DNA of 8,196 bases from a virus (Duplodnaviria; Heunggongvirae; Uroviricota; Caudoviricetes), in IMG/VR virus record IMGVR_UViG_2671180984_000037. One strand, given 5' to 3'. Made by a program: the position numbers and the translations under genes. The notes beneath the pieces were generated by a model, which was not told where the DNA came from, ran no database searches, and saw nothing but the letters and a program-made list of their open reading frames with translations. Shown piece after piece: positions 4,037 through 6,759 of this stretch; the first letter of the stretch is position 1, and each line of letters begins with the position of its first letter.

Positions 4037-4129
4037 TTTGTTCTCCACGTATATGCGCTGCACCGCGCTGAATTCTGGTAAAAGGAAGCCCTCACCATCC
4101 GGCGATTATTGAGTAAATTATGTTTCCAT

Positions 4130-4151
4130 AAATGCCCCCGCAGGGGCATTT
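4130..4151 (-). other. Perfect 9-bp stem / 4-nt loop hairpin (AAATGCCCC cgca GGGGCATTT) directly after the yfdQ-like stop
   Basis: Read directly from the sequence. It lies in the 127-nt gap between the yfdQ-like and yfdR-like genes. The downstream minus-strand sequence (AUGGAAAC) is not U-rich, so it is not a classical intrinsic terminator; more likely an intercistronic stabiliser or partial terminator. Confidence 0.35.
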
Positions 4152-5053: not shown

Positions 5054-5416
5054 TTAATGACCTGCTGCGCGGAGTTTTCCGTCAGGTTCACCGGCAAGAG
5101 TCAGTAATTGTCCCTGGTCTTCCTGCAGAATAGTCAGGCGACCACCGCGATTGACATACATCGGCGTTTCGGTGGTGTCTTCTTCGGAAATTTTCCCGCG
5201 GTTAGTCGGACGAACATATGAGAGTTTGTGTTTTATTTTCACACGGTTCTCATCAAACGGTTCGATTTCCAGGTTGAGCGAGACCTTCCCTTTGGTTTTC
5301 GTGTTCATCACACCTGAAGCGACTTCACTGAGAACAGCGCCGATTTTGGTTTCAAATACGCCGCCGTCCAGCTCCCCGATAAATGCCTGCACATCAGTAC
5401 TGCGTTCGCTAGCCAT
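5054..5416 (-). CDS. yfdP: YfdP-like hypothetical protein (120 aa)
   Basis: The ORF track extends this frame to 5647 (197 aa) from a non-ATG start. The internal ATG at 5416 has a strong GAGGAG 7 nt upstream and gives exactly 120 aa (MASERSTDVQAFIGELDGG...), matching the remembered size of CPS-53 yfdP. The upstream extension overlaps strongly structured DNA. Confidence 0.55.
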   Translation of the reverse strand: MASERSTDVQAFIGELDGGVFETKIGAVLSEVASGVMNTKTKGKVSLNLEIEPFDENRVKIKHKLSYVRPTNRGKISEEDTTETPMYVNRGGRLTILQEDQGQLLTLAGEPDGKLRAAGH

Positions 5417-5464
5417 TTTGCTGCTCCTCATCATATCGACCCTGCAAGGTCGGTTGGTTTCTCC

Positions 5465-5553
5465 ACAAAACAGAGAAGAGCACCTGCGGTGGCAGCCGCC
5501 CGGGTGGATTGGGTTATGAGCCCGTCGTCCGGTGATGCTCTTCTCTGTTTTGT
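5465..5553. repeat. 18-bp perfect inverted repeat (ACAAAACAGAGAAGAGCA / TGCTCTTCTCTGTTTTGT) around a 53-bp GC-rich spacer
   Basis: Arms at 5465..5482 and 5536..5553 are exact reverse complements, read directly from the sequence. Located in the PL leader 50-140 nt upstream of the yfdP-like start codon. Confidence 0.8.
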
Positions 5554-5599
5554 AAAAAGAGCGGTACCAGCCGGAAGCAAGTGTACAAACTGGTACCGC
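5552..5599 (-). terminator. Terminator/attenuator-like hairpin in the early-left leader: 10-bp GC-rich stem (GCGGTACCAG / CTGGTACCGC), about 19-nt loop, then UCUUUUUAC on the minus strand
   Basis: Inverted repeat 5561..5570 / 5590..5599 read directly. On the transcribed (minus) strand it is followed by TCTTTTTAC (plus 5552..5560). The loop is larger than in typical intrinsic terminators, hence low confidence. Confidence 0.35.
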
Positions 5600-6000
5600 C
5601 AAAGCAGTGGCTGTTGTGGTGGGGTTGTCACTCAGGCGTATGGTCAACCTGACAATCCGGTGTCCTCAACGGGGAAAGAGTAACCCCGCCATACTTACCG
5701 CCGCGCCATTTCGCGGATGACCACAACGCTGAGAGCACTTAGCCAGTTACGGCACCACACTTTGTCGCGGCTCCATAAATGCCCTCATCGTTGCACCCTG
5801 GTCTCTTCCCAGGCGTCAAACCGGATCGCCACGCTGGTTAGGCGTCTTATCAGCATCATCATTGACTTGCACATTCCGGCTACCTGGTTTGTTTGCCCTA
5901 GCAAGGAGTGGATTGTCCCCTTTAACGTCCCCAGACCGCTAACGACGCATGTGCCATACGCCGTGTTACAACCAAATTTTGTTTGAATCTTGCCTGCCTC

Positions 6001-6045
6001 ATGTTTCTTTTGGATACATTATGTATCTCATGGGTACATTGTCAA
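6001..6045 (-). promoter_or_regulatory. PL-type early-left promoter (-35 TTGACA, 16-bp spacer, -10 CATAAT on the minus strand) overlapped by two 19-bp operators
   Basis: On the minus strand, TTGACA corresponds to plus 6040..6045 and CATAAT to plus 6018..6023. Operator-like 7-5-7 palindromes: ATGTATC-tcatg-GGTACAT (6021..6039) and ATGTTTC-ttttg-GATACAT (6001..6019), centres 20 bp apart. The same half-site recurs at the cI/cro divergent region. Confidence 0.6.
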
Positions 6046-6084: not shown

Positions 6085-6759
6085 TTAGGCCTTTATTGTG
6101 TATCTTCTTGGTTTTCCCGAGAAAATCACTGTACCAATTATAGAGCAATTACCGTTAATCTTAATGTAAGGCTCAGGCCAGTTTGGGTTTAATGCTTTGA
6201 GATAACGCTGTGTTCCATCTTCTATCAATCGCTTGAAGGTGGTTTCGCCTGTATCGTGCATCAATGCAATAACGTCGTCACCGTGGCAGGCAGGGACTTC
6301 GGGATCAACAAAAATCATGTCTCCAGGGCGGTACTCATCAATCATTGAATCACCAATCACCCGCAAGATATAAGTCATTTCGCCACAGGGTACAGGGCAG
6401 GGATACGTTTCTGCTGTGCTCAAATCAACCTCAGAATAGCCAACTTCTTTCCATGCTCCGGCCTGTACCCATGATATGACAGGGACTAACGTTATTTGTT
6501 TGTTAGTGATTGAAACATCAGGTTTTTTTGTGATGTTCGTTGTCTGGTGTTCTTGATCAAGCCATCCGACAGGCAGGTCGAAACATTTTTCGATGTGGCG
6601 TGCCATGCTGTCACCGATATTTTTAGTAGCGCCATCCCCCATAAACCTGCTGGTTTGGGTTGGCTCGCGATCAATCATGGTGGCAAAGGATGAATTTCCG
6701 CCAACACCATCTCTCAGTTTTCTGGCGTTAGACCGCCGGATGTCATGGATTGTTTTCAT
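6085..6759 (-). CDS. cI: CI-type phage repressor, N-terminal HTH plus C-terminal LexA-like S24 peptidase domain (224 aa)
   Basis: C-terminal domain has the autocleavage catalytic motifs VIGDSM (Ser) and TFKRL (Lys), and a linker Ala-Gly (WVQAGAW) as the candidate cleavage site. Divergent from a Cro-like gene with operators between them. No Shine-Dalgarno before the ATG, consistent with a leaderless PRM transcript as in lambda cI. Confidence 0.9.
   Translation of the reverse strand: MKTIHDIRRSNARKLRDGVGGNSSFATMIDREPTQTSRFMGDGATKNIGDSMARHIEKCFDLPVGWLDQEHQTTNITKKPDVSITNKQITLVPVISWVQAGAWKEVGYSEVDLSTAETYPCPVPCGEMTYILRVIGDSMIDEYRPGDMIFVDPEVPACHGDDVIALMHDTGETTFKRLIEDGTQRYLKALNPNWPEPYIKINGNCSIIGTVIFSGKPRRYTIKA

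Follow-up and report, generated by a model that had tools for sequence, protein, structure and literature searches.

The hairpin at positions 5560-5600 on the minus strand of the DNA analysed here (8,196 nt of a tailed phage, hereafter the window) is, with a probability of roughly three in four, a DicF-type Rho-independent terminator in the PL leader of an N-less lambdoid phage, at which partial termination makes the 3' end of a DicF-like RNA while the remaining polymerases read through to yfdP. Elements of this kind, Rho-independent terminators at the end of DicF-type RNAs from prophage early operons, are known. Undescribed before is the variant found here, which is devoid of the seed, has another loop, lies upstream of yfdP and is carried by active phages. 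DicF is among the oldest known bacterial regulatory RNAs, and prophage copies of DicF affect cell division, metabolism and EHEC virulence. The DicF terminator module and its upstream domain thus also occur in a seed-less form in the PL leader of active temperate phages, among them Stx2c-converting phages, 2H10, Ayreon and cdtI.

The early-left leader of the phage

The window contains the immunity and early-left region of a lambdoid phage with immunity genes of the e14/SfV type; 1.2 kb of it are 98% identical to 2H10, a series of Stx2c-converting phages, Ayreon and cdtI. The following features, listed in the direction of early-left transcription, are used throughout:

6085-6759, minus strand: cI-like repressor gene
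6073-6054, minus strand: cI terminator (GAACCUGCUUCGGCAGGUUU and U-run) at the 3' end of the cI-like gene
6018-6045, minus strand: near-consensus PL-type promoter (TTGACA, 16 nt spacer, CATAAT; 11/12 matches)
5740-5977, minus strand: module A, a conserved non-coding leader block of ~240 nt
5605-5733, minus strand: module B, which forms the structured 5' part of the predicted "long DicF-like" RNA and has 88.6% identity with the dicF upstream region of Qin
5560-5600, minus strand: putative terminator stem-loop (5' arm 5600-5590, loop 5589-5571, 3' arm 5570-5560)
5552-5559, minus strand: U-tract CUUUUUAC (C5559, U5558-U5554, A5553, C5552)
5460-5558, minus strand: hairpin 2, a 24-25 bp helix (5558-5534 with 5484-5460) that encloses a conserved branched core
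5054-5416, minus strand: first early-left ORF, a YfdP homologue of 120 aa with its ATG at 5416

A promoter is annotated at the position equivalent to PL in the Ayreon record and, since the -10 hexamer (CATAAT) ends at 6018, transcription should start near 6011. The cI terminator finishes a few bases before the PL -35 hexamer (6040-6045) and, therefore, transcripts of the repressor gene stop right at the early-left promoter; the same layout was seen in e14 and SfV. PL and yfdP are separated by ~600 nt without a conserved ORF. Ahead of the yfdP homologue are a small hairpin (~5437-5452) and the Shine-Dalgarno sequence GAGGAG; behind it follow homologues of yfdQ and then yfdR. Behind yfdQ, at 4120-4150(-), there is a strong hairpin, AAAUGCCCC-UGCG-GGGGCAUUU, which is annotated as a terminator in Ayreon and has a U-tract on neither strand.

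Sensitive BLAST of the leader against phage genomes revealed a mosaic of non-coding modules with differing distributions. Besides modules A and B, a third block (5601-5417) begins exactly at the hairpin and corresponds to the conserved yfdP upstream region of SfV, SfII and others. A scan for tRNA and tmRNA genes found none, and an Rfam scan of hairpin and leader returned no match, neither at the gathering thresholds nor at E <= 10.

A terminator-like hairpin in the leader

The stem pairs G5600-G5590 with C5570-U5560 by 10 Watson-Crick pairs and one G-U pair. On the minus strand, the 5' arm consists of G5600 followed by GCGGUACCAG (5599-5590), the loop (5589-5571) reads UUUGUACACUUGCUUCCGG and comprises 19 nt, or 15 nt if two G-U pairs are added, and the 3' arm consists of CUGGUACCGC (5570-5561) and U5560, the partner in the G-U pair. 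After the stem follow five consecutive U (U5558-U5554), which places the predicted 3' end of the RNA at ~5554. A KpnI site (GGTACC) lies within the hairpin. In the window-type variant only, 3' arm and U-tract together (5555-5563(-)) read CGCUCUUUU, one mismatch away from the lambda boxA consensus; such matches occur at chance level. The coordinates and both arm sequences given by the first-pass annotation proved to be exact on the minus strand, its distance of ~410 nt from PL was borne out by the start near 6011, and its distance of ~140 nt to the first early gene amounts to 138 nt from the last U to the yfdP-type ATG.

In the RNAfold prediction for 5610-5540(-), 71 nt, the hairpin was present in the minimum free energy structure (-22.5 kcal/mol) as well as in the centroid (-19.5 kcal/mol), with z = -2.6 against 200 dinucleotide shuffles. 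It was retained in the fold of the whole 616-nt leader and in that of 5604-5414(-), for which z was -6.2. The concern that a 19-nt loop would block a stable hairpin, which had been named as grounds for discarding the terminator, was therefore dispelled. When both strands were searched for perfect stems of 10 bp or more with a loop no longer than 20 nt and 5 or more T in 8 nt, the window proved to contain exactly one such site and 200 dinucleotide-preserving shuffles none. The hairpin is absent from a generic terminator scan because that scan admits only loops of 3-8 nt. A d'Aubenton-Carafa-style terminator score with modern energies was discarded since it was negative for every terminator tested, strong ones included.

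The element thus has the GC-rich stem (11 pairs) and, immediately behind it on the transcribed strand, the U-tract of an intrinsic terminator. Efficient intrinsic terminators usually have loops of 3-8 nt, and the loop found here, with 19 (15) nt, is outside this range. Because of the 15-19 nt loop and only five consecutive U, the efficiency of termination may be low.

Homology to the dicF locus of Qin

In the Qin prophage of E. coli K-12, the 53-nt DicF receives its 3' end by Rho-independent termination and its 5' end by RNase E, a 190-nt species, cut at its 5' end by RNase III, shares the 3' end of the 53-nt form, and transcripts that end at dicF (1,146 nt) coexist with transcripts that read through (1,608 nt) (PMC10448788, PMC5069750, PMC9438474). 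A 72-nt form arises from RNase III cutting of the read-through RNA and has its 3' end 19 nt downstream of the terminator (PMC9438474, PMC5069750). Positions 5733-5554(-) of the window, 180 nt, are collinear with the 190-nt "long DicF" RNA, with 81% identity and one 19-nt gap. BLAST aligned positions 7-129 of the 190-nt species with 5727-5605 of the window (88.6% over 123 nt, E = 1e-42) and, as the next segment in the same order, dicF nt 13-59 with 5603-5553 (70.6%, E = 0.002-0.012), so that the hairpin begins 2 nt after the upstream domain, in the order found in Qin. An HMM made from Qin-context dicF variants only had a single significant match in the window, namely the 5' arm at 5604-5587 (E = 0.0025; envelope 5606-5555).

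Window and Qin have the 5' arm UUUGGCGGUAYCAGUUU, the stem base and CUUUUUA in common. The GGCGG/CCGCC base followed by CUUUUU that marks the DicF terminator is present in the window as GGCGG...CCGCU and CUUUUU, with one G-U pair. The setting is also the same: in both loci the hairpin is located directly 3' of module B, the upstream domain of the 190-nt species, in an early-left-type operon under the control of a cI-like repressor, and is followed by a 21-25 bp helix and then by the ribosome-binding site and first ORF. The two copies differ in that the DicF stem is interrupted (7+4 bp) whereas the window stem is perfect (10 bp plus G-U), that the closing pair at the base is G-U in the window, unlike in DicF, that the loop sequences are unrelated, and that the downstream gene is dicB in Qin but yfdP in the window. 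With a loop of 11-13 nt and bulges, DicF itself still terminates. Most likely, the window copy works like the DicF terminator.

The 19-nt gap takes out the DicF 5' seed (UUUCUGGUGACG) and the region of the RNase E site. In DicF, the single-stranded 5' seed with its RNase E-generated 5' end is the part that pairs with xylR and pykA (PMC5069750); since it is deleted, the window RNA cannot have the known targets of DicF via the 5' seed. The 3'/loop part that pairs with the ftsZ ribosome-binding site is probably not kept either, because the loop sequence differs, and RNAduplex against the ftsZ leader gave z = +0.5 for the window RNA and z = -1.0 for DicF, a calculation in which true DicF itself was not separated from shuffles. 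With seed deleted and loop altered, a function as small RNA is not implied by the homology. The DicF model RF00039 (gathering score 48 bits; positive control K-12 dicF, 76.7 bits) did not match the window at the gathering score, nor at E <= 10 on 681 nt or 116 nt. The window copy, which lacks the seed, has another loop and fails RF00039, is therefore to be regarded as a variant or evolutionary relative and not as a member of DicF.

The e14 copy and its 3' end in vivo

A further copy, the closest homologue in K-12, is located in e14 inside the annotated CDS ymfH (b1142), with 83.5% identity to the window over 176 nt. It has the same 10 Watson-Crick stem pairs, a CUUUUUACAAAACAGA tail and hairpin 2 as in the window; the base pair is G-C in e14 but G-U in the window, and the loops differ. 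Upstream, e14 has an STnc100-like body and a single-stranded stretch, GCUGUGUGUAGUC, where the window has module B. The e14 U-tract was computed to lie at 1201200-1201195 on the minus strand, and the curated Term-seq 3' end 1201195(-), with a read count of 34,193, is the last U of this tract (Adams et al. 2021, PMC7815308 supplementary file 1, sheet M63 0.4). Indeed, the flanking sequence listed for this end also finishes on the last U (PMC7815308). Term-seq does not tell termination from 3' trimming back to a stable hairpin, and 3' ends in vivo within the U-tract come from the e14 copy only. The designation "terminator-like" given to the window hairpin before was thus strengthened in two ways: the hairpin is a homologue of the DicF Rho-independent terminator in position and sequence, and its e14 copy has a 3' end in vivo on the last U.

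Another Term-seq 3' end, 1201257(-) on the LB 0.4 sheet, lies in ACUUUA^UGCUG, 17 nt upstream of the e14 hairpin (PMC7815308), and would be consistent with a cut of the RNase E type, from which a 62-nt RNA would result. A third one, 1201423, is located just upstream of the ymfH RNA region. The e14 copy scored 28.5 bits (E = 3e-4) with RF00039, which is below threshold, and the window copy scored nothing. With the STnc100 model (RF02076), the e14 region scored 29.2 bits, and the 3' terminal hairpin of the model was aligned to the DicF-like hairpin. The CDS ymfH (5070-5381 in the extracted e14 locus) covers the STnc100-like RNA body, the DicF-like hairpin and hairpin 2; probably, ymfH is an RNA rather than a protein-coding gene. 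A K-12 Term-seq 3' end that had been published but not interpreted, inside a doubtful gene, is thereby brought to notice.

The Qin dicF-dicB helix region matched STnc100 weakly (34 bits), and the window did not match this model (gathering score 47 bits), also at E <= 10. The Pas and STnc100 loci described so far belong to late (Q/lysis) regions (10.64898/2026.05.13.724894). The Pas sRNAs of this preprint from the Storz laboratory, PasD included, were considered as an identity for the window element and rejected, since they are late-region loci, unlike the element studied here.

Conservation of the hairpin

Conservation was analysed in 31 genomic loci with yfdP homologues, 120 viral contigs with a module B 14-mer, and the phage and K-12 loci. 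About 35 distinct hairpin variants were recovered (out of 39 listed matches, a few of which overlapped or were off-target), from E. coli, Shigella, Enterobacter, Kosakonia, Mangrovibacter, Providencia and viral contigs. All variants have the stem base GGCGG/CCGCC (or GGUGG/CCACC) and, directly after the stem, C/U-UUUUU, while the loop ranges from 7 to ~50 nt. Compensatory changes were found in the upper stem (TACCAG/CTGGTA, TGATGG/CTATCA, GTAT/ATAC, CATCAG/CTGATG and GGCGCCAGC/GCTGGCGCGCC). The outer seven pairs were paired in 93.4% of cases, compared to 86.5% in shuffles, and the observed value was reached in 0 of 2000 shuffles; the covariation comes entirely from fairly close relatives. The U-tract is kept before hairpin 2, before a Qin-type helix or, in two loci (L019 and L020), directly before Shine-Dalgarno sequence and ATG. 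Since it is kept whatever comes next, it is conserved for its own sake.

In e14, SfV and many genera, the same hairpin is found where module B is lacking, and two loci (L044, L073) are intermediates that combine an e14-type 5' flank with the DicF loop and Qin-type downstream sequence. A 201-nt query comprising hairpin and hairpin 2 had matches in 2759 of 5426 complete E. coli genomes. An ncRNA annotation under the match was found neither in the phage records examined nor among the E. coli matches listed.

Structures flanking the hairpin

Module A recurs with 78-82% identity in P1, between tRNA-Ile and ban (L003 3001-3185), and in phiV10-type phages (L004 2501-2745), in which it lies immediately upstream of tRNA-Arg. 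It shows compensatory changes (CCUGG/CCAGG, GCCGG/CCGGC, CCUCG/CGAGG) and had no match in Rfam. Module B is also present in PPompW-type and Tritos-type phages and right after the P1 Pban promoter. Its predicted fold, an 8-bp closing helix with three inner helices and a pseudoknot, had 96% of cells paired over 50 distinct sequences, compared to 33-57% in slid controls; nine pairs were changed on both sides and 0 of 500 shuffles matched. Module B is, therefore, probably pseudoknotted according to this model, but the covariation is supportive rather than conclusive because the sequences are closely related and the P1 lineage contributes much of the signal. An alternative helix from the minimum free energy fold (CUCAG.../...CUGAG) was rejected since its two sides vary independently among sequences.

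In every locus sampled, an intrinsic terminator is found within ~60 nt downstream of module B. The leader of the P1 ban operon, a repressor-controlled early operon, has module B followed by an intrinsic terminator as in the window: from the Pban start it is ~25 nt to the beginning of module B, and behind module B comes a strong terminator, with the tRNA genes and ban further downstream. The P1 record labels the equivalent stretch "dicF-like region". The P1 terminator (GCCCAUCUUCGGGUGGGC and U6) is, however, unrelated in sequence to the window hairpin.

In hairpin 2, eight pairs have changes on both sides (15 sequences, several genera). The bases of the U-tract form its foot by pairing with GGAGA, and the core loop CGGGCUCAUAACCCAAUCC hardly varies between E. 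coli, Mangrovibacter and Kosakonia. Its positional analogue in Qin is the 21-bp long-range dicF-dicB helix, which is followed by the dicB ribosome-binding site. The RNase III cut that gives 72-nt DicF would, by its position 19 nt past the 53-nt end, fall in this helix, and by analogy hairpin 2 is likely to be an RNase III substrate. Possibly, it is a separate small RNA or an element for the translational control of yfdP. Modules A and B and hairpin 2 are a more intriguing part of the locus than the terminator.

Alternative explanations

The first-pass annotation had taken the hairpin for an antitermination-controlled barrier to delayed-early expression. Put in full, it would be an efficient terminator that is overcome by processive antitermination, either by a leader RNA that acts on RNA polymerase in cis (module A or B, like HK022 put) or by a protein that does so, and the early-left genes would be reached by modified polymerase only. 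As in the window, the early-left genes of lambda (N/nut-tL) and HK022 (put) are separated from PL by an intrinsic terminator. An N homologue is absent from the phage, a put-like control has been speculated for relatives with yfdR-yfdQ-yfdP early-left operons (PMC12315714), and module B, with its conserved and, in the model, probably pseudoknotted fold, invariably has a promoter or upstream genes on one side and an intrinsic terminator on the other, P1 included. But unlike lambda and HK022, the window has neither an N gene nor a nut site above chance nor a put-like sequence: an N-like ORF was not found in the leader (5417-6017), where no ORF is conserved, boxA-like matches in the window numbered 8 with 6.2 expected, and HK022 putL and putR as well as the annotated HK639 putL-like RNA share only chance 9-13-mers with the leader. 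An Rfam scan of HK022 itself also gave no put match, as Rfam has no put model. With no N, nut (by boxA) or put element found, antitermination is left without support, and there is no evidence that read-through depends on a factor. In Qin, module B is directly upstream of the DicF terminator and yet the terminated products of 53 nt, 190 nt and 1,146 nt are abundant; therefore, module B does not abolish termination there. We know of no report of a dedicated factor for the coexistence of terminated and read-through transcripts in Qin. Furthermore, the hairpin is present where module B is absent. Taken together, we regard a barrier controlled by antitermination as unlikely.

Alternatively, the hairpin could mainly be a stability or processing element, in which case polymerases would read through, RNase III would cut the 25-bp helix and 3' exonucleases would trim the RNA back to the stable hairpin, which would account for the 3' ends observed. 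The long, near-perfect helix indeed starts in the U-tract and is conserved with covariation, Qin has an RNase III-dependent 3' end (72-nt DicF) 19 nt downstream of the terminator (PMC9438474, PMC5069750), and the e14 end was mapped by Term-seq, by which trimming and termination are not separated. On the other hand, the U-tract is conserved in the two loci in which the downstream helix is absent (L019 and L020), the e14 3' end is exactly on the last U, as predicted for intrinsic termination, and termination is the accepted origin of the 3' end of 53-nt DicF. That the hairpin is mainly such an element is likewise unlikely. That the hairpin is a chance palindrome around the KpnI site or part of a coding region has a negligible probability: open reading frames called mechanically do span the site, 5054-5647(-) and 5489-5683(+), and Ayreon and phiSTEC1575 have small hypothetical proteins annotated there, but none of 200 shuffles gave such a hairpin, the stem covaries and the loop lengths change by non-multiples of three. 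Both ORFs were rejected as coding. The TTG-started ORF 5054-5647(-) is an artefact, its frame being closed 1-13 codons upstream of the yfdP ATG in most homologous loci.

Proposed function and wider reading

For the DicF-type terminator with partial read-through, the following sequence of events is proposed by analogy to Qin. After derepression of PL, polymerase would transcribe the structured leader of ~460 nt, the 11-bp GC-rich stem would form with polymerase at U5558-U5554, and part of the polymerases would be released. Release would leave a non-coding RNA with its 3' end at ~5554, whose stable form should be ~180 nt long (5733-5554, module B and hairpin), probably after 5' trimming by RNase III, and would correspond to the 190-nt DicF RNA that RNase III generates in Qin. 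With its 19-nt loop and five-U tract, the terminator would probably act incompletely. In the transcripts of polymerases that read through, the U-tract would be folded into the foot of hairpin 2 with GGAGA, yfdP, yfdQ and yfdR would be expressed, and an RNase III cut in hairpin 2 would separate the RNA from the mRNA. The first-pass annotation had also offered a discrete non-coding RNA made from PL, and this part of it is nearer to the evidence; by homology, the stable product should, however, be ~180 nt long with an RNase III-cut 5' end rather than ~400 nt.

Between PL and the early-left genes, N-less lambdoid phages have this hairpin as their one clear intrinsic terminator, which makes early-left control in these phages directly testable. 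A wider reading is tentative and we consider it rather doubtful. According to this reading, the functional unit would be the ~180-nt RNA (pseudoknotted module B and hairpin) made from PL on induction, the GGCGG...CCGCC-U5 hairpin would be a portable 3' module of at least three RNA bodies (DicF seed, STnc100-like, module B), and temperate phages (lambdoids, P1, phiV10-type) would swap a cassette of seed and loop to retarget host genes; about half of the complete E. coli genomes would carry the family, and it would be annotated nowhere. In a stronger version, module B may modify RNA polymerase or set the ratio of termination to read-through in N-less lambdoid phages.

Related hairpins and loci

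Several observations were made on loci beside the main line of the analysis. Long-loop versions of the hairpin (L009, L019, L020, L028, L031, L033) share an inner stem as well as a conserved GAUGAUAAUGUUCUG stretch, which in two genera can be read as a Shine-Dalgarno sequence and AUG-AAG-AUA-(A/G)UG-UUC-UGA; the frame is lost elsewhere. A second conserved hairpin type, GGCGGCCCGG...CCGCCAGCUUUUUCAGGG, was seen ~0.4-1.1 kb upstream of yfdP in prophages of Mangrovibacter, Buttiauxella and Scandinavium (L009 ~1461, L010 ~1350, L011 ~2143, L032 ~2023). Four contigs labelled Fredinandcohnia humi, Martelella alba and Chryseobacterium sp. (L016, L019, L020, L024) carry yfdP loci of the enterobacterial type, and the protein segment of L016 is 100% identical to the YfdP of the window over 79 matched residues; these contigs probably reflect assembly contamination or mislabelling. 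Finally, a DicF-type hairpin, GGCGGUGAUGG...CUAUCACCGCC and CUUUUU, was found ~45 nt downstream of tRNA-Arg in phages of the phiV10 type (E. coli O157 typing phage 10; L004 ~2862-2905), so that a podovirus, too, uses this terminator module, here behind a tRNA.
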